Shown one piece after another: positions 307-29,203 of a stretch of DNA of 29,203 nt (its first letter is position 1; every line of letters starts with the position of its first letter). Below the pieces are notes generated by a model that worked only from the letters and a program-made list of their open reading frames with translations, was not told the origin of the DNA and ran no database searches. A program made the position numbers and the translations under genes. This DNA is from Escherichia phage ESSI2_ev239: sequence record NC_049392.1; one strand, 5' to 3'.

Positions 307-2010
307 TCAGGCAATAATGTTCTGGTACTTGCTCCGGGTTTCTCCGGCTTTCGTGGCGGTCTGCGTGAATGATGCCGCATTGGTCGGTGTGCCGACGCTG
401 GGGTGTGAGTGACTGGCGCACTGCCTTGCCAGTTCTGCCAGTAAATCAATGGTATCCAGCATCATGGTCAGAGCGTTGATACTCTCACTGCCAATATGGA
501 CAGTTGCCCCCATGACCTGCTGACCGCCAGCGGCCACTGATTTACGCAGAGCGGCAATCTTCTCTGTCAGGCTTTCGCCAACCTCCACAGCTACAGCACC
601 GCCCACTTTAATGGACTGCTGTCCTGCTATGTCCGTTTCTTCGTTTCCTTCAATACTGGCCAGTCTGTTACCTTTCACCGCCTGGCTATAATCACCGGCG
701 CTTACCTGCTGGATAGCTCCGGCCAGCAGTGTGGCGGTTCCCAGTACCGTAGTTTTATCCGTGGCTTTCACCGTGGTTTCACGGCTGACCAGTTCGCGCT
801 GTTCCGTATCAGCTTTCACTGTTCGCGCCATTGATGTTTCGCTGATGGTCTGATCGGTCTGTCTTACCCAGTCCCCTGCCTGAGTCACCCGCTGGGAAAC
901 TTCTTCCCGCTGCTGCTGCAATTGCTCTCCGGGTTTAACGTTCGGCAGGCTGGTACCATCCGGCAGCGTCTGCCTGATAAAGGGTTTATCCGGTCTGCCC
1001 CCCGTGAATGCAACCTCAACCAGCGTCCCTTCTGGCGGAAACTGAAACATACCCGAATCATTCCCGGCCATCGGTACCGGCAACGGCACCGCTGAATAAA
1101 CAGGCGTCTGATTGTCCGGGTTTCCGTCTGCGTCAAGCAGCTGCACATCCACGGCGTAACGTGGCCGGAAGGGATCGGCAAAGTTACCGCTTTTTACCGG
1201 CTCTGAATGCGCCACGACTCTGGCCATCTTTGGCAAATGAAGCCCGGATGCCAGTTCCGGGTAATGGCTTTCAATCTGCCGTTGCGCCGGTGTTTTCTGC
1301 AAAGGTTTACCCGTTGCGCGGTTTCTCGGCGTCCATGTGATCGCCATCGTGTCATTCGTCAGGTGAACTTTAGTCACGCGTTCACCGTTCATCTCCACCC
1401 CTGGCCGCATAGTCTGGATCACTGGTAATGTCACAGAGTTACCTCCAGCAGCCCCCTGGCTGAACTCTGACGGGATTTCTACGGGACGACCGGCAAACAA
1501 TGATTTTTCTGCGCCGCCGACGTAAAGCGAACCATCAGGCAACTGGTACCAGATGTAATCCTGGATGCCGAACGCCCTGCCCAGATTGTTCAGCAACTGA
1601 TAGCCGGTACCGTTATGGGTGAAATGTGGGATAGGGGTATCGCTGTACTGTGCATCAGGCACACTGACCGTGATCCCGCTGTTTTCTTCCAGCCAGCTGG
1701 CTACCTCGCGTAAAGTTGGATGTTGAAACGAACATGGCCACATCCTTTCAAACACACCTACCAGCTCACGAATGAACAGACGCTGAAAACCGTTTTCAGC
1801 GGGCTGCGATCGCTCCACATACCCCGTAAACCAGCGCAAAAGCAGATCGGTATACCCCACATCCAGCCGCACCAGTTTTCCGGTGTAATCGGTTGTTGTC
1901 TCTGCGGTGATGAAGCCCCGGCCGCAGCTGTTCAGCTCCAGTACCAGGCTGGCATCCACCAGGTGAACTTCATCCGTTGAAAGGTAAAGGCGTTTTACTG
2001 GTTTCATCAT
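307..2010 (-). CDS. Putative baseplate hub / central spike fusion (gp27/gpD-like N-region plus gp5/gpV/VgrG-like OB-fold)
   Basis: 567 aa. Mid-region motif PEGTLVEVAFTGGRPDKPFIRQTLPDG resembles the conserved OB-fold signature of gpV/gp5/VgrG spikes. Start overlaps the upstream gene stop (ATGA coupling). Family assignment by eye only. Confidence 0.45.
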   Translation of the reverse strand: MMKPVKRLYLSTDEVHLVDASLVLELNSCGRGFITAETTTDYTGKLVRLDVGYTDLLLRWFTGYVERSQPAENGFQRLFIRELVGVFERMWPCSFQHPTLREVASWLEENSGITVSVPDAQYSDTPIPHFTHNGTGYQLLNNLGRAFGIQDYIWYQLPDGSLYVGGAEKSLFAGRPVEIPSEFSQGAAGGNSVTLPVIQTMRPGVEMNGERVTKVHLTNDTMAITWTPRNRATGKPLQKTPAQRQIESHYPELASGLHLPKMARVVAHSEPVKSGNFADPFRPRYAVDVQLLDADGNPDNQTPVYSAVPLPVPMAGNDSGMFQFPPEGTLVEVAFTGGRPDKPFIRQTLPDGTSLPNVKPGEQLQQQREEVSQRVTQAGDWVRQTDQTISETSMARTVKADTEQRELVSRETTVKATDKTTVLGTATLLAGAIQQVSAGDYSQAVKGNRLASIEGNEETDIAGQQSIKVGGAVAVEVGESLTEKIAALRKSVAAGGQQVMGATVHIGSESINALTMMLDTIDLLAELARQCASHSHPSVGTPTNAASFTQTATKAGETRSKYQNIIA

Positions 2011-3829: not shown

Positions 3830-5403
3830 TATGCGAGTCTCACTATGTAGTTAAATGCAATGTTCTTAACGGTCGTTTCTGCGTTGCCCGACGCGGCGAC
3901 GGTAATGGTGTGACTGTGTGCGCCAATTGCTACGGTATGAGAGTGAGCGCCAATACCTACGGTGTGATTGTGTGCGCCAATGGCTACAGTGTGCGCGTGG
4001 TTTCCCGCCGAACTGGTGGCGGCTCGCCCCTGATCGCTACGTGGTACCCCCCAGTCACTACCACCTGATTGCACGTTCCCGCCATAACCAATGGTGTGCG
4101 TATGCGCTCCCGTGGTATTTGTCGTTTTCGTGCCATAGTCAAACGTGCTCGCCGTTTTAGTACCGTAATCAAAGGATGATGTTGGTTTTGTCCCCAGATC
4201 GGTACTGGATGCACTGGCTGTATGGTCATGAGATTTATTGCCATCATCTTCATAGGAGAGAACTGCGCGACCGTCTGGCTTTCCTTTGATTGTCTGGCGG
4301 CGCATGTCAGTAATAACACCCGATGGATACGCAGCAGCCAGCAATGGATATGCCGCCGTATTAAAAGACTGCCCCTGCATAATTGCCCATCCAGTAGGTG
4401 GGATATCCGTTGGCCATGGAAGCGGCACACCAACCGGCAGAACGTCACTGCGACTTAAAACGGCCAGTTCACCCAGATCCAGACTTTTTCTTGCTTTTAC
4501 CTTATCGTTAACATCAGCAAGGTTTGCATCCTTACGCAAAAAATCGCTGCTGGCCTGCTGTTCTCCCAGGCTACCTTTTGGCCGTAAATCCGTGATGTTG
4601 CCATCCACATCAATGCTGGCCACAGCAAACACATAATGCTGAACCCCGTTCTGAACATAATCAGCAAGATTTGCTGCCACCGTGATTTTGCTCTGCACAT
4701 TCCAGACACTGGTCAGCATCCCTGTCCAGCACACATCCAGCCAGACTTTTACCGGCTTTGCCGTCACCGTAATATTCTGATTCGCAGCCAGTGACGCACG
4801 AAGTCCAGCCACATACCCCGTGCCTTTCGTGACAAAAAACTGATTTCCGGTTTTGGCTACCAGATACCCGTTACCAAAAAACGCCGCCGCGCCATAAATA
4901 TCCATATTTTCCAGGCGCTGGCGCTCATCCATTCCGGCCATACGCGCAGTAAAATCAATCTGCCAGGTTTCAGCGGGTGTATTAATCCCGGTTTCCGTCT
5001 GTGCGCCGTTGTACTCCATCAGAAACGAGCGGGTCAGCACGTTCCCCTGTTGCCCTTCTTTTGTTTTCAGTTTCTGCTGTGATGGTGCATGGACAATCAT
5101 TGCCAGCGTACCGCTGGCCTTATTGAGCAGACCGATCCAGTTAAAACTGAAATCACCCACATCTGCGCCCAGCACTACGGAATAAACCACCCCGTTTTCA
5201 TTCACCACACCGGTGCGGGTAACAGATTGCCGGTGAACAATCTGTGCTGTCGGGGGCAACGCTTCATTGCGGTCAACAGGTGTATCCGGGTTTAAATCCG
5301 GCACACTGGCAAAAACAAATTCGTCCAGTAGTACCGGTTCACCCGTTGCGCCCTGCTGTGCTTTCCAGTTTTCAAACGCCAGTGTGATGGCTGTCTGTGA
5401 CAT
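3829..5403 (-). CDS. Tail fibre protein with His-x-His repeat tip
   Basis: 524 aa; conserved N-terminal attachment region; C-terminal repeats FDYGTKT and GAHxHTV(A/G)IGAH resemble HxH metal-binding tips of T4 gp37-type fibres. Followed immediately by Tfa. Confidence 0.85.
5096..5218. repeat. Direct repeat, copy B (identical to 1-123)
   Basis: See copy A; lies within codons ~62-102 of the tail fibre gene. Confidence 0.9.
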
Positions 5404-20499: not shown

Positions 20500-20751
20500 T
20501 TACGCGCTTGCCTCAGTCTTGATAAAGGCAATGCCATCTTTAAGGAATGCGTGATAGTTTCTCCCACTCAAAGGGGAGTGAACCACAGCAGTAAGCGGCA
20601 ACAAAACATCAACAACGTTAGCAAATTGCTCAAAACTGATATCGAAGTGCTCCATTGTCAGTTCATCAAAATCAGTCGTTTCATATAGTTCATCGCTGAT
20701 ATTAAAAATTCCCATCAGCAATTCCTCATACGAAAAATAATTTTGCTTCAT
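20500..20751 (-). CDS. Small acidic hypothetical protein (candidate accessory, anti-defence or exclusion factor)
   Basis: 83 aa, rich in D/E/F; last gene of the early operon, in a region visibly AT-richer than the structural genes. Confidence 0.5.
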   Translation of the reverse strand: MKQNYFSYEELLMGIFNISDELYETTDFDELTMEHFDISFEQFANVVDVLLPLTAVVHSPLSGRNYHAFLKDGIAFIKTEASA

Positions 20752-20773
20752 TTATTCGCCCTATAATTATTCG

Positions 20774-21145
20774 CTAATCAATAATCTTAATGGTCATATC
20801 ATCCGAATCAAAAACGCCGGACACATCAACCCCTGTAATTTTGATTCCCTCAGAACCGTCCATTGGAGGCCATCCCTCCTGCCCGTTACCTTCTTTCCAG
20901 TCAAATTCACATACAACACCATATGTATTAAAGTTATTCTCAAGTGCAATGAGCATCGCATGTTGTGCCAGCATAATTAAGACGGCATTAAGTACAGATT
21001 CATGCTTCATGAGACGATATTTAGCTTCCGACCAGAAATTGTTAATTTCATGTAATTTTTCTTCTGTCATTACATCGTGGTCAATTTCAATATCAATCTC
21101 CGCTTTCCAGTCATAATCCACGGTATATCTTTTGACATTTGTCAT
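20774..21145 (-). CDS. Acidic hypothetical protein (candidate accessory, anti-defence or exclusion factor)
   Basis: Track ORF 20774-21238; preferred start is MTNVKRYT, preceded by AAGGGG at 6-7 nt, about 10 nt after the primase-helicase stop. Roughly 123 aa, acidic, no domain I can name. Confidence 0.5.
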   Translation of the reverse strand: MTNVKRYTVDYDWKAEIDIEIDHDVMTEEKLHEINNFWSEAKYRLMKHESVLNAVLIMLAQHAMLIALENNFNTYGVVCEFDWKEGNGQEGWPPMDGSEGIKITGVDVSGVFDSDDMTIKIID

Positions 21146-21155
21146 TATTTTCCCC

Positions 21156-23882
21156 TTATTTTTCCCTACGGAATATCCAGCAACGGAATGTATCCGGCAT
21201 GCGTTGCATTTCACCTTTGCCACGGTTATGGCGTTCACTCACTGCGCTGCGCGTGGTTTTGGTGTCGATAAAACGGCGCTCGTTGCCGTTTTTAAGCAGC
21301 TTTTTAATCTCGGTTAAAGTAAACGGAATACGCTGCCGGTGGGCGGCGGCGACTTCTTCCAGATGGTTAAAATTGACCGCTATTTCACCTTCATCCGATG
21401 AATGGTTAATACCATGCGGTGCCAGCTCGTCGAGGTAGTCAAACAGCTCCCAAAACTCCTGCACCAGAGGGTGATCCTTTTTAAGCGCCTGACACCGTTC
21501 CACGGCCAGCGCGGTGATGGCCTCGCGGGTCTTCTCAATACGCTCCACCGGCACCGGCACAACCAACGCCAGCGCTTCCAGCAAACCGACCAGTTGCGCA
21601 TGGTTTTTGGCGATACGGATATGGCGGATATTGGTATTAGACTCCAGCTCGCCACGGGCGCGTTCGTAGCCCTGGCCAAACACCTTCATGATTTCTTTTT
21701 CACGCATAGTGGCCAGCAGGGTGAAACCAGATACCTGGCTGACTGGGATCTGCTCAAGGCGTTCAGCGGCATAGCGGGTCTGAATAGACTGGCCACGCTT
21801 GTCGGTATAGATGTGGATGATACGCTCCAGAAACGCCTTACTGCCGTCTGTGTCGGCGTTCTGCGCTATCACTATGCTGCCCCTGAATGGCGGCTCGTAG
21901 GTCTCGTTATTGTTCGATTTGATACCCACAGCGCGGGAGGCGCGACCGTTATACAGTGATTTCAGCTCGTCCCAGTCAAAAGCGCGTTGTTTAGCGTTAT
22001 CGGTAGTACGGTCGCCCTCAATCAGCACAACCGGCAAATTACCGACCTGCGCAAAGTTACGGCCACGCGCTGCGGCTGTCGATTTGGAAGGATCAAACCC
22101 TTCATACTCTTCACGGCCGGCGAGTTTCCACAGAAATTCAATCAGCGTGGATTTACCTGTTCCCGGTTCCCCCACGATTTCAAGAAACGGGAAAGACTTG
22201 TCACGCTCGCGGATTTGCTCAGCAAACAGCGACCCCAGCCAGAACGCCAGAGCCACATACCCTTTTTCACCAAAAGCCGTCCAGATATCGTCTACCCAGC
22301 CCGTAGTAAATTCGTTCAGCTTCGGATTCAGATCCAGCGACGGCGTGAGGCTCAGGCTCTTGACGCTGGCGCTGTTGATTTCGAAATAATCTTCATCGTT
22401 CATTTCGTACAGCCGGCCATCACAAACAGCCACGCGATTAAACAGCCATGCAGCATAATCCTTGTTATAGCCAATGAAATTTTGCGTCTTAACCTCTTTG
22501 ATTTCAGGGAGGCGCATCTGGATGAACTTATCCAGCTGTTTGGTACTGCCGGTGTACACCGCACCTTTGGCGATATGCAGCAGACGTTTTTTAAACTCGG
22601 CGGAACTGGTTAACTGGTTGGCCGTGAAAGTATCTTTCACGGCTGGCCGGTTCGGCATATTGACCTTCACGTAATACCAGGACTCGTCTGTAGGTTCAGA
22701 CCGCTGGAAGTAAAGCGGCGTCAGCCAGCAGTTGGCGATTTCAGTCACGCCACCTGACTCTTTAACCGCCCGTTCTTTGGCCTCCCACTCCATCACCACT
22801 TCAGTACCGGTATTGGTGATGCGCTCATAAGCTCGCATGTACCTGTCCAGATCCAGCTCAAACCAGTACATGCGGGAGTTATGCTCAAAATAGAACGAAT
22901 GCCACTCGTTATGCTGATGCATGAGCAACGCTTTTTCAGTCGGGCTTTTCGCCAGAAGGATATCGCCATAGTAGCGATAATTTTTGATGTCCGATTTGCT
23001 GAACCGCCCACGTAAAAGCAGGTCATTCCAGTCCAGACTGGAGGATGATTTCACCGGCTGCGCCGCGCGAACTTTCCAGCCGGCTTCCTCGCTACGGGCA
23101 GCAAAGGCCAGCGTGTGCTTAGTGCCAGCTCTGTCACCATCAAACGCCCATATCAGGCGTGGGCGGGGTTTCTCGCCCAGCTCTTTAGCCAGGGTATCCA
23201 GCGCCACCAGTGGGTAATTATTGCTGCTCAGTGTGGCCACAGCGGGTAAACCCGCCTGGCACAGGCTCAGCGCGTTGAAGATGCCCTCAGTGATCCAGAT
23301 TTCATTCACTTCCAGCAGGTTCACAGACGGCGGAACCCACCAGTGGCCAACGTAGCTGCCTCTGATGTTCGCTTTCTGCTTACCAAAGCGCTGCGGCTGG
23401 TCAATGATGCGCTCCCATGTCGCACCGCAGGTCAGCTTAAATCTGACGGTTGCCGACCCCATACCATCTTTGGCAAACGCCCCCTGGGTAAAGCAACCTT
23501 TCAGCGGTTCAGTATCCAGCCCTCTCGCCTCGCGCAGATACGCCTCAGCTACCGCATGAGGGTTATCTTCTGTGGCCTGGTACCGTTTTGACCAGTCTTC
23601 AAAAATATCCGGATACAGCTCTTTGACAACGACCTGATGGCCGCAGTTGTTTTCGCGGCCGCACTTCAGGATCCAGGGCTTTTCTATGCTGGTAAATAAT
23701 TCACGTTTGTGGCATTTAGGGCAAACGCCCTGTTGCAGATATTTATCCCGTTCCTTGAATTCAAAATCCTGAACGAGTCGGCACACAACGTCCTGCTGTA
23801 TTGTGGCATTCATAATTAATCCAGATGTAGAAAGGTGTGAAAGGCAAAAACTATATTCGGTATTGTTTGTTATATCGCTCAT
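21156..23882 (-). CDS. Replication primase-helicase (zinc-finger + Toprim primase + P-loop NTPase; P4 alpha-like architecture)
   Basis: 908 aa with CPKCH...CGRENNCGH zinc motif, Toprim-like EGIFNA and AFDGDRAG, and Walker A GEPGTGKS. Start may be the internal MNATIQ (about 23813). Confidence 0.75.
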   Translation of the reverse strand: MSDITNNTEYSFCLSHLSTSGLIMNATIQQDVVCRLVQDFEFKERDKYLQQGVCPKCHKRELFTSIEKPWILKCGRENNCGHQVVVKELYPDIFEDWSKRYQATEDNPHAVAEAYLREARGLDTEPLKGCFTQGAFAKDGMGSATVRFKLTCGATWERIIDQPQRFGKQKANIRGSYVGHWWVPPSVNLLEVNEIWITEGIFNALSLCQAGLPAVATLSSNNYPLVALDTLAKELGEKPRPRLIWAFDGDRAGTKHTLAFAARSEEAGWKVRAAQPVKSSSSLDWNDLLLRGRFSKSDIKNYRYYGDILLAKSPTEKALLMHQHNEWHSFYFEHNSRMYWFELDLDRYMRAYERITNTGTEVVMEWEAKERAVKESGGVTEIANCWLTPLYFQRSEPTDESWYYVKVNMPNRPAVKDTFTANQLTSSAEFKKRLLHIAKGAVYTGSTKQLDKFIQMRLPEIKEVKTQNFIGYNKDYAAWLFNRVAVCDGRLYEMNDEDYFEINSASVKSLSLTPSLDLNPKLNEFTTGWVDDIWTAFGEKGYVALAFWLGSLFAEQIRERDKSFPFLEIVGEPGTGKSTLIEFLWKLAGREEYEGFDPSKSTAAARGRNFAQVGNLPVVLIEGDRTTDNAKQRAFDWDELKSLYNGRASRAVGIKSNNNETYEPPFRGSIVIAQNADTDGSKAFLERIIHIYTDKRGQSIQTRYAAERLEQIPVSQVSGFTLLATMREKEIMKVFGQGYERARGELESNTNIRHIRIAKNHAQLVGLLEALALVVPVPVERIEKTREAITALAVERCQALKKDHPLVQEFWELFDYLDELAPHGINHSSDEGEIAVNFNHLEEVAAAHRQRIPFTLTEIKKLLKNGNERRFIDTKTTRSAVSERHNRGKGEMQRMPDTFRCWIFRREK

Positions 23883-24979: not shown

Positions 24980-25249
24980 TTAAAGCCCTAACCACATTAG
25001 CCACGCATCGCGTTGTGCTTTTGGTTTTTTTGCAAATGCAAGTCGGATGCCTTTATTAAATTCCTCAATACAAATCAGTTTCTCCGTACGCGCTCCAGGC
25101 TTCTCCGGATCCTGAATTTCAATAAAAGGAATTTTGTCCGCTTTAACCATCATATCCACGGCATTTTTAGACTTACCCAACAGCTCCGCGAACTTCTCAG
25201 TTGTCACCCCTTCGAGCGGGTACTTGATAAGCAAATCATCAAGGTTCAT
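24980..25249 (-). CDS. cox: Cox-like excisionase / lytic-switch regulator
   Basis: 89 aa, back-to-back with the C repressor gene; C-terminal RDAWLMWLGL resembles the P2 Cox C-terminus as I recall it. Confidence 0.65.
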   Translation of the reverse strand: MNLDDLLIKYPLEGVTTEKFAELLGKSKNAVDMMVKADKIPFIEIQDPEKPGARTEKLICIEEFNKGIRLAFAKKPKAQRDAWLMWLGL

Positions 25250-25666: not shown

Positions 25667-25750
25667 AAGCTGAAAATTGGTTAGACCTGTATTTTGAATT
25701 TGCTGACTGCCTGTGGTCGCAGGCCGGAAGCTACATCGGAGGGCTTCGCT

Positions 25751-26734
25751 ATGGCGATTAAGAAGCTCGATGATGGACGTTATGAACTGGACACAAGAGC
25801 GGGCGGACGCACCAGTAAGCGGATCCGCAAAATATTTAACAGAAGGGCTGATGCTGTTGCGTATGAACGCTACATGCTGGGTAAGTTTCAGCGCAAGGAA
25901 TGGGATCCGGCAGCACAGATTGACAGGCGCACGCTGGACGATATCAGAGAATTGTGGTGGCTCTACCACGGCCAGACGCAGAAGAATGGCGAGATTGAAA
26001 ACAGGCATCTCATCAAAACCATTACCGCGCTGGATAATCCGCAGGTAGGCGAGGTTAACAAACGAATGCTGATAGTCCACCGCAGCCGCAGGCTGGCGCA
26101 GGGAATAAGCGCATCCACGGTCAACCGCGATATTTACCGGCTGTCCGGCATGTTCAGCGCACTGATCAAGCTGGATGAGTTTGAGGGGGAAAACCCGCTG
26201 CGTGGTCTGCCTCCCCTGAAAGAGAAAAATCCCGGCATGACCTTTCTCACAAAACCGGAAATTAGCCGCCTGCTGGACACGCTGACGGGCGATTACCGAC
26301 TGGTTGCCCTGCTGTGCCTCAGCACAGGCGGACGCTGGGGAGAGGTCAGTACGCTGACGGAATCGCAGATTATGCACGGCCGTGTCGTATTCCTGGAAAC
26401 GAAGAACGGCAAAAAGCGCGTGGTTCCCATCTCTTCCGAACTGGAAGACGAAATTATGGCCAACGCCAGCGCGGGGCTGTTCCGGGTGGACTATGAAAAC
26501 TTCTGCCGGAAGCTGCGGAAGGTCAAGCCAGACCTGCCACGCGGTCAGGCCACCCACATTCTGCGACACACGTTCGCCAGCCACTTTATGATGAACGGCG
26601 GGAATATCATTGCGCTTCAGCAGATACTTGGCCATGCCAGCATTCAGCAGACGATGGCGTATGCGCATCTGGCACCGGATTATCTCCAGAACGCTATCGC
26701 ACTGAATCCGCTGAAAGGGGGGCTGGGAGTCTGA
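25751..26734 (+). CDS. int: Tyrosine integrase (P2 Int-like)
   Basis: Start MAIKKLDDGRYE, preceded by GGAGGG, matches the P2 Int N-terminus; catalytic region HILRHTFASHFMMNGGNIIALQQILGH...MAYAHL carries the R-H-R-Y signature. Confidence 0.9.
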   Translation: MAIKKLDDGRYELDTRAGGRTSKRIRKIFNRRADAVAYERYMLGKFQRKEWDPAAQIDRRTLDDIRELWWLYHGQTQKNGEIENRHLIKTITALDNPQVGEVNKRMLIVHRSRRLAQGISASTVNRDIYRLSGMFSALIKLDEFEGENPLRGLPPLKEKNPGMTFLTKPEISRLLDTLTGDYRLVALLCLSTGGRWGEVSTLTESQIMHGRVVFLETKNGKKRVVPISSELEDEIMANASAGLFRVDYENFCRKLRKVKPDLPRGQATHILRHTFASHFMMNGGNIIALQQILGHASIQQTMAYAHLAPDYLQNAIALNPLKGGLGV

Positions 26735-26739
26735 TAATT

Positions 26740-26970
26740 CCGTCCACATGTGGACGCATTTTTCCGTTTCGGGACTGCCTGAAACCGCCTGAAACGGAAG
26801 TGTGGACAGTGTGGACGGTAAAATTGGCCTGAAAAGTTTGTAAGTCGTTGAAAAAAAAGACCCCCACATCATGTGGGGGAAGACAGGGATGGTGTTGTTT
26901 TAAAAAGCATAAATCATTGATATTGTTGTATTTATATTGAAATTTCCGTCCACAAAACGTCCACATCGAC
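26740..26970. other. attP attachment site: Int arm-type repeats flanking a hairpin core
   Basis: Left arm GTCCACATGTGGAC (about 26742-26755) and TGTGGACAGTGTGGACGG (about 26801-26818); core hairpin cccccacat-cat-gtggggg preceded by A8 (about 26851-26879); AT-rich spacer; right arm CCGTCCACAAAACGTCCACA (about 26946-26967) in opposite orientation. Confidence 0.6.
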
Positions 26971-27189
26971 CGCAAGCCCCAGTTTCTGGGGCTTTATCAA
27001 AAAAACGTGACGTCTATCACGGTAATGGCGAACTGCAAGAAGTTCGGTTGCCAAATGGCTGATATCGCTTTCTAAATCAATTCAATCTCATATGACATAA
27101 CTACGTTGTGAAACAGGAACTACTGAATGCTGATTCACCATAGATGAAAAAAATGCTAATATCCACAAAAAGGCTAAGCGTAAAATAAA

Positions 27190-28293
27190 ATGAAATATAT
27201 TTTTGAATACGGATTTTATCTCAGCATACTTATAGCGACAATATATGTCACTTCTAAGTTTTTGGGTATTACACCTGCAAAACATAAATACGCCTCACTT
27301 GATGGCTTACGTGGAATTTGTGCAGCAATGGTTGCTGTATTCCATCTTTACTGGAGAGCCGGAGGAGAATCAGATATATACTGGTCTCTTGAGTACATTA
27401 CACTCAGCAATGTAAAACGCGCCATATATCTAACAGGTGAGTTATCTGTTGGTGTATTTTTTATGCTGTCTGCTTTTTTATTTTTCAAAAAGGCACTGGC
27501 GAACTCCTTCGATGTAAAAAGTTTTGCAATTTCACGATTCATGCGAATTTACCCACCTGTAGTGGTTCTTTTATTTATAATATATATTGCAACATTTATC
27601 ATGAATCCGGATGACCATACTCCAGTATCGCAATGGTTTATACCTTCATTACCATTTATATTCAATCCACCTGGAGCTAACATCAATGGTGTATCGCTCC
27701 AGATTGCCACATCTGGTGTGTTCTGGACGTTAGTCTGGGAATTACGCCTATACCTTGCAATTCCATTTTTATATCTGATAATGAAAAACATAAAATATAA
27801 AGAAGCATTTGTTATTTTTTTAATGGGATGTATTTTGTTATTCAAGTATTTTATAAATAATGAACAATACCTGAGTTATATAATGTATTTCCTTGCCGGA
27901 TTTCTTGTCGCTACAATCAAGAGTAACAAGCGCCCATCAGATATAATCTGCGTTTTATTATTATTCGCAGCTATATATTTCACTCGACATGCTTACAACA
28001 CTACAACTCCGCTTTATATGTTTGTTATTTTCTACACAATAAAGTGCGGATGTGATTACTTTGGCTTACTTACATCCCTGCCTGTAACTATGCTGGGAAC
28101 CTGCAGTTTCTCCCTTTATTTAGTTCATGGGATAACTCAGACAGTATCTAAACATTATTTATATAGCACAGGAAACTATGTTTGGCAGATTTGTGCAATT
28201 ATTGCGGCAGGTATCATTGCGCCGGTTATGTACAAATATGTCGAAAGTCGCAGCATCATACATAAGCCTCCTCACCTTCAGATTGCAAAGTAG
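27190..28293 (+). CDS. Acyltransferase family 3 integral membrane protein (candidate O-antigen O-acetyltransferase, lysogenic-conversion moron)
   Basis: 367 aa, about 10 hydrophobic segments, N-terminal signature LDGLRGICAAMVAVFH typical of the Oac/OafA-type acyltransferase-3 family; markedly AT-rich compared with the phage backbone. Confidence 0.75.
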   Translation: MKYIFEYGFYLSILIATIYVTSKFLGITPAKHKYASLDGLRGICAAMVAVFHLYWRAGGESDIYWSLEYITLSNVKRAIYLTGELSVGVFFMLSAFLFFKKALANSFDVKSFAISRFMRIYPPVVVLLFIIYIATFIMNPDDHTPVSQWFIPSLPFIFNPPGANINGVSLQIATSGVFWTLVWELRLYLAIPFLYLIMKNIKYKEAFVIFLMGCILLFKYFINNEQYLSYIMYFLAGFLVATIKSNKRPSDIICVLLLFAAIYFTRHAYNTTTPLYMFVIFYTIKCGCDYFGLLTSLPVTMLGTCSFSLYLVHGITQTVSKHYLYSTGNYVWQICAIIAAGIIAPVMYKYVESRSIIHKPPHLQIAK

Positions 28294-28299
28294 AACATT

Positions 28300-28322
28300 T
28301 GCGCCCCTGAACAGGGGCGTTA
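28300..28322 (+). terminator. Possible intrinsic terminator after the acyltransferase gene
   Basis: GC-rich hairpin gcgcccctg-aa-caggggcg just after the stop; weak U-tract. Confidence 0.35.
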
Positions 28323-28387
28323 TCCCACCGCGCTGTTAAAATTTTGTTTCGTCTCACCCCGCATTTTTAAGTTGCCCATCGGAAAAA

Positions 28388-28653
28388 CGTCACAACCATC
28401 ACACATCAAAGAAACACCACCTATCCACATGATTATCATGAATAAAATTTGTGACGGTAAAACCATCACAAAACGTAACACAAACCGTCACACTCAATAA
28501 ATTCAGCGAGTTATAAAACAGAGCTGTGATGTTTTAAGGCCGTCACACTGTGATGCTCTTGTGATAGTTTTGTGATGGTTTTCAATATATGAATTTACTT
28601 ATACATATCATATAGATAAATGATATTTTTAAAATCTGTGATGTTTGTGACGG
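28388..28653. repeat. Iteron-like array of about 11 TGTGA(C/T)GG motifs in both orientations (candidate replication origin or regulator binding array)
   Basis: Motif copies at about 28388, 28396, 28450, 28463, 28485, 28524, 28540, 28548, 28571, 28636 and 28646, several as inverted pairs; AT-rich block (tatatgaatttacttatacatatcatatagataaatgatattttt) lies inside; no ORF of 60 aa or more. Confidence 0.5.
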
Positions 28654-29126
28654 TTTTCCGATGCTCCCCCTCAATTTTTGAAAAAATAAGAAGTGGTCAG
28701 AAATCACCCTGATTTGTTGGTGAGTTTGTTTCTCTCTCTGTTACTGATTTGGTTACTGGTGGCAGCATGTGTGCACAGGGATGGGAGCAGACGGATCTGT
28801 GCAAGGTATTTCAGTTGTGCCGGTTCGTACAGTTCCCCGTAAACCCGTGCCAGCTGCGGCTTTCTGTTTTTAAACGCTTACGAGAGCCGGCGCCGGCCGT
28901 TACGTAAAAAATCACGTAATCACAACTCATCCCGCATGGCTCAGGGCTTTAGCTCCTGTTACGCCCTGCCTTCCATCGCACAAAAACTGAAATCTTTGAA
29001 ATCTGTTTCACACATTTCAGTTTGAGATCTGGTCTCAAAGCCCCAGCGCTGGCGCGGTCTGGCGGTATGTTTTGTACCCCCGGAAAAACTGAAATCATTC
29101 TCAACACGAAAACCGCAGGCGGGGGC

Positions 29127-29203
29127 CTGTCTCTTATACACATCTCCGAGCCCACGAGACTCCTGAGCATCTCGTATGCCGTCTTCTGCTTGAAAAAAAA
29201 AAA
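29127..29203. other. Sequencing adapter contamination (Nextera read-through adapter with 8-nt index, P7 tail and poly-A)
   Basis: CTGTCTCTTATACACATCTCCGAGCCCACGAGAC + TCCTGAGC + ATCTCGTATGCCGTCTTCTGCTTG + A11 is the standard Nextera i7 adapter structure; not biological sequence. Confidence 0.9.

Follow-up and report, generated by a model that had tools for sequence, protein, structure and literature searches.

Escherichia phage ESSI2_ev239 (NC_049392.1; 29,203 nucleotides (nt), the full length of which we refer to as the window) carries an AT-rich cassette between its attachment site, attP, and its cohesive-end site, cos. We propose that the gene at 27190-28293 in this cassette encodes an inner-membrane acyltransferase that consists of the acyltransferase-3 (AT3) domain alone and probably O-acetylates an envelope polysaccharide, likely the O-antigen, in the lysogen. 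By analogy with related phage enzymes, acetylation of the O-antigen would bring about serotype conversion and resistance to superinfection. Phage-encoded AT3 O-acetyltransferases beside att are an established route of lysogenic conversion (PMC9558356). The present enzyme belongs to an uncharacterised clade, in a phage group where it was previously undescribed. The gene and the signals that flank it are:

27134-27162, plus strand: candidate promoter of the gene's own, with TTCACC, a 17-nt spacer and TGcTAATAT (extended -10), read from the sequence.
27190-28293, plus strand: predicted AT3-only membrane O-acyltransferase gene, from the open reading frame (ORF) listing, family profiles, alignment and structure model.
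28302-28319, plus strand: GC-rich, terminator-like hairpin CGCCCCTG-AA-CAGGGGCG with a weak T tail, 9 nt past the acyltransferase stop codon.
28377-28663, no strand: AT-rich non-coding array of eight TGTGAYRG motifs with a large imperfect inverted repeat, from repeat search and alignment of copies.

The ORF is intact, begins with an ATG upstream of which no other start is possible, and encodes 367 amino acids. Residues 35-346 match Pfam PF01757 (Acyl_transf_3) with an E-value of 3.8e-29 and 102.2 bits (cut-off 31), and the protein matches PHROG 3333 ('O-acetyltransferase') with 136 bits. A preliminary description of the window, made from the sequence alone, had expected this profile match together with an N-terminal signature of the LDGLRGI...AVFH type. 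Both are there, the signature at S36-LDGLRGICAAMVAVFH-52, and so are the catalytic motifs of the family (R41-X10-H52, R116-xx-R119, W65, F98 and E184). R41 and H52 form the R-X10-H motif, defined as R/K-X10-H on R14/H25 of OafA (PMC7448272), and S115-R116-F-M-R119 contains the RXXR motif, whose counterparts on the cytoplasmic side are R73/R76 in Oac and R116/R119 in OacB. The residues invariant among 48 aligned homologues include R41, H52, F90, R116, R119, W179 and E184. At the FFxISG-type position the protein reads F90-F91-M-L-S94-A95, so that the phenylalanines and the serine are kept and the glycine is an alanine. This position varies between glycine and alanine within the clade; the glycine is dispensable in OafA and critical in Oac (PMC7448272).

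An AlphaFold2 model, computed with the homologue alignment as input (predicted local distance difference test score (pLDDT) 92.2, predicted template modelling score 0.90), agrees with the initial view of a polytopic membrane protein. It has the ten-helix AT3 core fold with a central cavity and lacks an extramembrane domain. The number of transmembrane helices is 11, not the 10 suggested at first. The extra helix is N-terminal, and a hydrophobic N-terminal segment (residues 6-25) is kept in homologues down to 35% identity; the last helix ends at residue 356 of 367. The best matches of the model among solved structures are HGSNAT and GWT1, trans-membrane acetyl-CoA acyltransferases that are, unlike the window protein, eukaryotic, act on other acceptors and share 12-15% sequence identity with it. 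Neither sequence nor fold searches found a bacterial AT3 structure in the PDB copy searched. In BFVD, a collection of predicted viral protein structures, the fold search returned one AT3-like match, an unnamed 637-residue viral protein that is uninformative on function. The NCBIfam search gave no match above cut-off, and thus no WecH or OpgC equivalog, and the PADLOC defence library gave no match.

AT3 is the sole Pfam domain of the protein; an SGNH domain was not found, and between 26735 and 29123 there is no other ORF of at least 60 codons with a family match that could be an SGNH partner. Given the 11 helices and the lack of an SGNH domain or partner gene, we assign the protein to the Oac/OacB type and not to the OafA type. 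Of the original 'Oac/OafA-type' label, the Oac half therefore stands and the OafA half falls.

Among characterised enzymes, BLASTP ranked OacB of Sf101 first (76 bits, 26% identity over 320 residues), Oac of Sf6 second (41 bits, 26% over 186 residues) and WecH third (31 bits over 73 residues); OpgC was non-significant. OacB has 11 predicted helices, a periplasmic N-terminus and the essential residues R47, H58, W71, F98, R116, R119 and S146 (PMC8952252). The first six of these align with R41, H52, W65, F98, R116 and R119 of the window protein, and the N-terminal extra helix is common to these two only among the five proteins compared. The likeness to OacB of Shigella flexneri Sf101, and to its homologue OacC, thus comprises an AT3-only architecture, 11 predicted helices including the N-terminal extra one, a periplasmic N-terminus, six of seven critical residues and the location of a temperate-phage gene between int/att and the tail genes. 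The two differ in their phages (a Lederbergvirus podovirus versus a Peduoviridae myovirus), in their hosts (Shigella versus Citrobacter and E. coli) and at the level of sequence, with 26% identity.

Oac of Sf6 is likewise an AT3-only lysogenic-conversion enzyme with R-X10-H and RXXR motifs, and its gene sits between tailspike and int. Unlike the window protein, it has 333 residues and 10 transmembrane helices and lacks the N-terminal extra helix. Sf6 Oac is known to block superinfection by Sf6 (PMC9833829, PMC7448272, PMC9558356). The Salmonella enzymes OafA and OafB (GtrC family II, e.g. of prophage BTP1) share the AT3 membrane domain and its motifs, both acetylate O-antigen, and OafB is prophage-borne like the window gene. 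In contrast to the window protein, which ends about 10 residues past its last helix, they have a C-terminal 11th helix, a linker and, for the final transfer step, a periplasmic SGNH domain.

The homologues form a compact enterobacterial clade, with identities of 96% in E. coli, 76-81% in Citrobacter, 69% in Kosakonia, about 51% in Enterobacter and Salmonella 6,14 and 35-38% in Klebsiella. Similarity to characterised members stays below the level of orthology (26% to OacB; 26% to Oac over 186 residues). With 26% identity and no closer copy in a deposited phage, we regard the protein as part of a new clade working like Oac and OacB, and not as an OacB orthologue. In the literature we found no paper that cites the RefSeq accessions of the E. 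coli homologues, and Quadragintavirus, the genus of the nearest deposited phages, is mentioned only in passing.

The composition of the gene sets it apart from the phage backbone, as the preliminary description had pointed out. Its GC content is 35.9% (32.6% at third codon positions) against 52.4% for the backbone from 117 to 26734; over 500-nt intervals, GC is 33-40% across the gene and 50-59% across most of the backbone. The gene is intact and under purifying selection, with a ratio of nonsynonymous to synonymous substitution rates (dN/dS) of 0.20 relative to an E. coli copy and 0.06 relative to a Citrobacter copy. In the candidate promoter, the TG(C/T)TAA(T/C)AT element (27154-27162 in the window) is kept in the window, E. 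coli and Citrobacter copies despite diverged flanks. A consensus promoter scan returned a different, weak site at 27162-27191. Inspection by eye of the region upstream of the gene revealed no signals of phase variation, with neither GATC sites nor a long repeat tract. The hairpin downstream of the gene is invariant in all four aligned copies and was not called by a consensus terminator scan.

Next to the gene lie the integrase gene and attP:

25751-26734, plus strand: tyrosine integrase gene, int (Pfam Int_N, 103 bits; Phage_integrase, 70 bits).
26741-26817, no strand: P arm of attP with TGTGGAC-type repeats, comprising the palindrome CGTCCACATGTGGACG, and GTGTGGACAGTGTGGACG, recognised by inverted and direct repeats.
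26852-26896, no strand: attP core, corresponding to the fieF-cpxP intergenic hairpin (cpxP terminator, minus strand), recognised by identity to the empty site and by lysogen junctions.
26938-26975, no strand: P' arm of attP with two GTCCACA repeats, which remains with the acyltransferase gene on the attL side of the prophage.

The gene had been described as adjacent to attP, and this is borne out: the order is int, attP, acyltransferase, cos, with 294 nt between the core and the acyltransferase ATG, which places the gene inside the phage and not in host flank. The core was delimited by alignment of attP, attB and attR, and TGTGGAC-type repeats lie on both sides of it. From the organisation of attP in the P2 family, the P-arm repeats are putative arm sites for Int. 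A GTCCACA-type motif also occurs upstream of the gene in the E. coli raiA-type and the Citrobacter prophages. In about 4,400 of 5,426 complete E. coli genomes, one single site matches the 44 nt at 26852-26895 in 43 positions. This site is a hairpin between fieF and cpxP, 25 nt past the cpxP stop codon, and the attP core contains a terminator-like hairpin at 26879-26861 on the minus strand. Integration duplicates the core, so that a terminator is left to cpxP at attR. The fieF-cpxP site also serves many P2-type prophages of E. coli. The same hairpin is presumably also the 3' end of the small RNA CpxQ.

Lysogens provide the most direct view of the locus. An index of public assemblies has the exact protein in 76 blocks, and seven of the eight loci shown have the arrangement sbp, pfkA, fieF, acyltransferase gene, 567-residue spike gene and then HP1_ORF34 onwards. 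Their identity to the window (99.8-99.96%) begins exactly at 26852, spans the gene and crosses from 29123 into 117. In one E. coli lysogen (L078), attL corresponds base for base to the predicted succession of fieF flank, core, P' arm and gene. The host flanks of most lysogens are about 85% identical to E. coli and those of one are 99% identical; annotations of the identical protein come from Citrobacter farmeri, C. amalonaticus and E. coli. The junctions place the gene between attL and cos and hence within the prophage, with int at the other end. In lysogens, the gene is thus parted from int and lies 294 nt from the core and about 420 nt from the divergent fieF. On one 70.6-kb contig (GCA_041297695.1), the integrase gene is contiguous with the acyltransferase gene, as it is in the window, but the early region differs (186-like, with Fil, TerB and DUF3927), which suggests either tandem lysogeny of two phages at the cpxP site or a recombinant phage.

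The acyltransferase gene is accessory, since sister phages carry other cargo in the same slot; its initial designation as a moron, an accessory gene, is thus appropriate. The cassette (27148-29123) recurs at about 91-94% identity in the same slot of E. coli and 'Salmonella s1' prophages that have a different integrase and occupy the raiA-pheL site, and a Citrobacter prophage adjoining copA encodes a 78%-identical protein there. In ESSI2_ev129, the slot (29934-30551) holds a hexapeptide-repeat (LbH) acetyltransferase gene instead, and in other raiA-site prophages (L072, 763-4228) it holds a DNA-methyltransferase fragment, an ATP-dependent nuclease and a YafO toxin-antitoxin system. The attP-cos slot hence hosts two unrelated acetyltransferase folds. 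The cassette is present in 22 of the 5,426 complete E. coli genomes. In a tblastn search of 50,697 phage records, none of the P2-type phages had a homologue, in line with the earlier statement that P2 has no such gene, and no deposited phage had a close one. P2-type phages share only the attP stretch with this part of the window.

In at least five prophage types, relatives occupy accessory slots next to genes for tail fibre, tailspike or integrase. In a P2-type prophage, one relative (62% identity) is flanked by the tail-fibre-assembly and sheath genes, which we take to be the Z/fun position of P2. The 51% relatives are found between the int/S24-repressor genes and the tailspike in two types of Enterobacter phage, and the 37% relatives at the end of a lambdoid prophage of Klebsiella, where they follow a tailspike-like gene. 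In decayed prophages of Salmonella 6,14 and C. amalonaticus ku-bf3 (L008 and L014), an intact acyltransferase gene is kept beside nothing more than fragments of integrase or spike genes. This repeated siting beside att or genes for receptor binding follows the pattern known from Sf6 oac, where the order is tailspike, oac, int, and from Sf101 oacB. The slot also resembles the variable slots of the P2 family, for which a hotspot concept was reportedly put forward by Rousset et al. in 2022, in that its backbone position is fixed and its content differs between similar phages. In contrast to those slots, it lies between attP and cos, as in HP1 and ESSI-2 and not as in P2, and the cargo in the window is an enzyme that probably modifies the surface, and not a system of intracellular defence.

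Downstream of the gene, the TGTGAYRG array holds eight of the 12 copies of this motif in the window, in the whole of which 3.6 would be expected by chance. Its inverted repeat has 70-nt arms that are 73% complementary and includes a perfect inverted repeat of 16 nt. The motifs are conserved and the spacers variable between the E. coli, Salmonella and window copies. The array accompanies the gene in the E. coli and Salmonella copies and is absent beside more distant homologues. It is not a multi-copy mobile element, as the 22 E. coli genomes have a single copy each, and only together with this cassette. A small ORF within it (28320-28481, minus strand) was discarded; it has no PHROG match, and substitutions favour conserved motifs over coding. 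The array may be bound by a protein, and it may represent a dedicated regulatory or recombination element of the cassette.

Based on these data, we envisage the following sequence of events. In Citrobacter as well as in E. coli, the phage integrates at the cpxP terminator, in the interval that separates fieF from cpxP, and the gene would be transcribed from its own promoter in the lysogen. Such expression is suggested by the separation of the gene from int upon integration, the divergent orientation of fieF and the conservation of the TGnTAATAT element. By analogy with other AT3 proteins, acetyl-CoA would then be taken into a cytoplasm-facing cavity and the acyl group presented at the periplasmic face. 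In the published AT3 model, acetyl-CoA enters a cavity lined by R-X10-H and RXXR, with its thioester near the essential histidine (PMC9833829, PMC7448272), and our AlphaFold2 model agrees with this mechanism. A sugar of an envelope polysaccharide would be O-acetylated, most likely in the O-antigen repeat unit during periplasmic assembly. The outcome would be a changed surface epitope (seroconversion) and reduced adsorption or enzymatic cleavage by phages that use this polysaccharide.

Several observations weigh against this proposal. The protein shares at most 26% identity with any characterised enzyme, and S146 of OacB, the seventh critical residue, which lies in a variable loop, has no alignable counterpart. 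Upstream of the gene there is no clear Shine-Dalgarno sequence, and the consensus promoter is weak. One Kosakonia relative (69% identity) has no phage genes within 7 kb. The acceptor cannot be read from the sequence, and AT3 enzymes acylate more than O-antigen, including enterobacterial common antigen (ECA), osmoregulated periplasmic glucans, capsules, peptidoglycan and secondary metabolites (PMC9558356). Furthermore, the O-antigens of Citrobacter and E. coli differ while the protein is identical, so that a serotype-specific acceptor would often be absent.

The last point leads to an alternative that we consider real, albeit unlikely, because the identical protein circulates in both genera: that the acceptor is a conserved envelope glycan, such as ECA, the WecA-primed N-acetylglucosamine (GlcNAc) of O-units, the lipopolysaccharide (LPS) core, capsule or colanic acid, on which the enzyme would work in many hosts. 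The range of hosts (C. farmeri, C. amalonaticus and E. coli, with flanks 85% or 99% identical to E. coli) would fit such an acceptor. Similarity to WecH, an AT3-only ECA acetyltransferase, is detectable at 31 bits, and enzymes of the OacB/OacD type are able to acetylate O-6 of GlcNAc (PMC8952252). The Klebsiella relatives moreover adjoin depolymerase-like tailspikes, for which capsule is the usual receptor. However, the protein is nearer to OacB and Oac than to WecH or OpgC and matches neither NCBIfam equivalog, and its hosts already have a chromosomal wecH, so that a second ECA enzyme would be of little benefit. An unlikely form of this alternative is a broad-host 'receptor cloak' that acetylates a glycan shared among Enterobacteriaceae (ECA, WecA-primed GlcNAc or LPS core) rather than a serotype-specific converter, with the downstream TGTGAYRG array perhaps serving as the regulatory or recombination element of the cassette. 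It is suggested by the passage of the identical protein between Citrobacter and E. coli and by the presence of relatives in at least five phage architectures.

It is very unlikely that the gene is a decaying or silent passenger without function in the lysogen. The rarity of the cassette among complete E. coli genomes, the weak promoter and ribosome-binding signals and the truncated copies within the 90% cluster would be in line with decay, but dN/dS is 0.06-0.20, the catalytic residues are all invariant, the exact protein recurs in 76 indexed blocks, and the gene is kept where the remainder of the prophage has decayed. Similarly, we see little likelihood that, instead of converting the host surface, the enzyme has a role in the lytic cycle or a substrate other than a glycan, for example a lipid or a small molecule. 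AT3 proteins do also acylate antibiotics and Nod factors (PMC9558356), and the structural neighbour GWT1 acylates lipid-linked inositol. Yet close phage relatives lack the gene entirely, it is placed and oriented as accessory genes expressed in lysogens typically are, and its nearest characterised relatives are O-antigen enzymes. An origin of the gene in chromosomal DNA of the host next to a prophage, or in a chimeric assembly, has next to no probability: the gene does lie beyond int, where host DNA would start in an integrated P2-type prophage, and the contig ends are artefactual (Nextera adapter at 29128-29203, duplicated 116-nt head), but the attP core is upstream of the gene, eight independent assemblies hold it within a prophage from attL to cos, the same cassette occurs in prophages at two other integration sites, the window ends coincide with the physical ends of ESSI2_ev129, and the lysogen junctions rule out an origin in host flank.

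The temperate phage that carries the gene belongs to the Quadragintavirus or ESSI-2-like members of the Peduoviridae with an HP1-type baseplate, and is not P2 proper. The closest deposited phages are Escherichia ESSI2_ev129, ev015 and ev040 (Peduoviridae, Quadragintavirus; 88-89% identity over half the genome) and Cronobacter ESSI-2. The structural genes combine a P2-type head with an HP1-type baseplate (HP1_ORF34, DUF2590, Baseplate_J and the 567-residue spike-like protein). A Cox gene (24980-25249, minus strand), a helix-turn-helix repressor gene and the tyrosine integrase gene (to 26734) precede attP. The ORF listing starts the integrase at a TTG at 25694; its likely start is the ATG at 25751 (MAIKKLDDGRYE...). 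The two ends of the genome are:

117-306, no strand: left genome end, on the cos side, downstream of the last late gene, which encodes the 567-residue spike-like protein (307-2010, minus strand).
28700-29123, no strand: cos-proximal backbone with a GC content of about 50% and (A)CTGAAAT repeats, reaching the right physical end of the genome at about 29123.

Positions 1-116 and 29128-29203 of the window are assembly artefacts. Bases 1-116 repeat, at 99% identity, positions 5096-5211 within the tail-fibre gene (the full match pairs 1-127 with 5096-5221), and the last 76 nt are Nextera adapter read-through (CTGTCTCTTATACACATCT CCGAGCCCACGAGAC TCCTGAGC ATCTCGTATGCCGTCTTCTGCTTG) plus poly-A. Minus-strand ORFs called at 28949-29170 ('...SEMCIRDR...') are translations of adapter and not genes. 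In related prophages, 29123 is joined directly to 117, and the sequence across this junction reads GCAGGCG-GGTGCGGT-GTAGCGCC. The ESSI2_ev129 record has adapter at both ends, at homologous positions (...CCGCAGGCG / GTAGCGCCGTTTT...). As its ends coincide with those of the window, we regard 117-29123 as a linear genome that is essentially complete and was cut at cos or close to it. The likely position of cos is accordingly between the last late gene and the cargo slot, an arrangement that we take to be the layout of HP1. About 8 nt at the junction that are absent from ESSI2_ev129 are a possible cohesive end, and the (A)CTGAAAT repeats at 28982-29099 may be terminase-binding sites.

A second patch of low GC (40-45%) lies at 20500-21240, between an ogr/delta-like gene and a Toprim/DUF5906 replication gene. 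It encodes a DUF2528 protein of 154 residues and contains an ORF of 83 residues (PHROGs of unknown function); an E. coli relative has a 239-residue hypothetical protein at this position, which may be another cargo slot. In one Citrobacter-type lysogen (L076, 9977-13104, compared with 6794-3669 of the window), the block of baseplate-J, tail fibre and assembly genes is inverted and abuts the spike gene, while HP1_ORF34 and a 253-residue gene are uncalled. The inversion may be a rearrangement or an invertible tail-fibre segment. Rfam had no match in the window at the gathering threshold, and no tRNA was found. At E<=1, sub-threshold matches fell on the attP hairpin (Hrs1, 28 bits; AgvB, 22 bits), which we dismiss as chance matches of a terminator-like structure.

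Taken together, the finding leaves current concepts unchallenged and extends them to a clade that has no characterised member, yet is distributed across several phage types and genera. O-acetylation of surface polysaccharides by prophages alters the serotype, the epitopes used in vaccines and the susceptibility to phages; Shigella and Salmonella have been well studied in this respect, E. coli and Citrobacter hardly at all. If the enzyme does modify the O-antigen or another receptor, it could account for some serotype sub-factors and for some of the resistance to therapeutic phages. The attP-cos slot of ESSI-2-like phages would then be a site at which surface-modifying and defence cargo is swapped.

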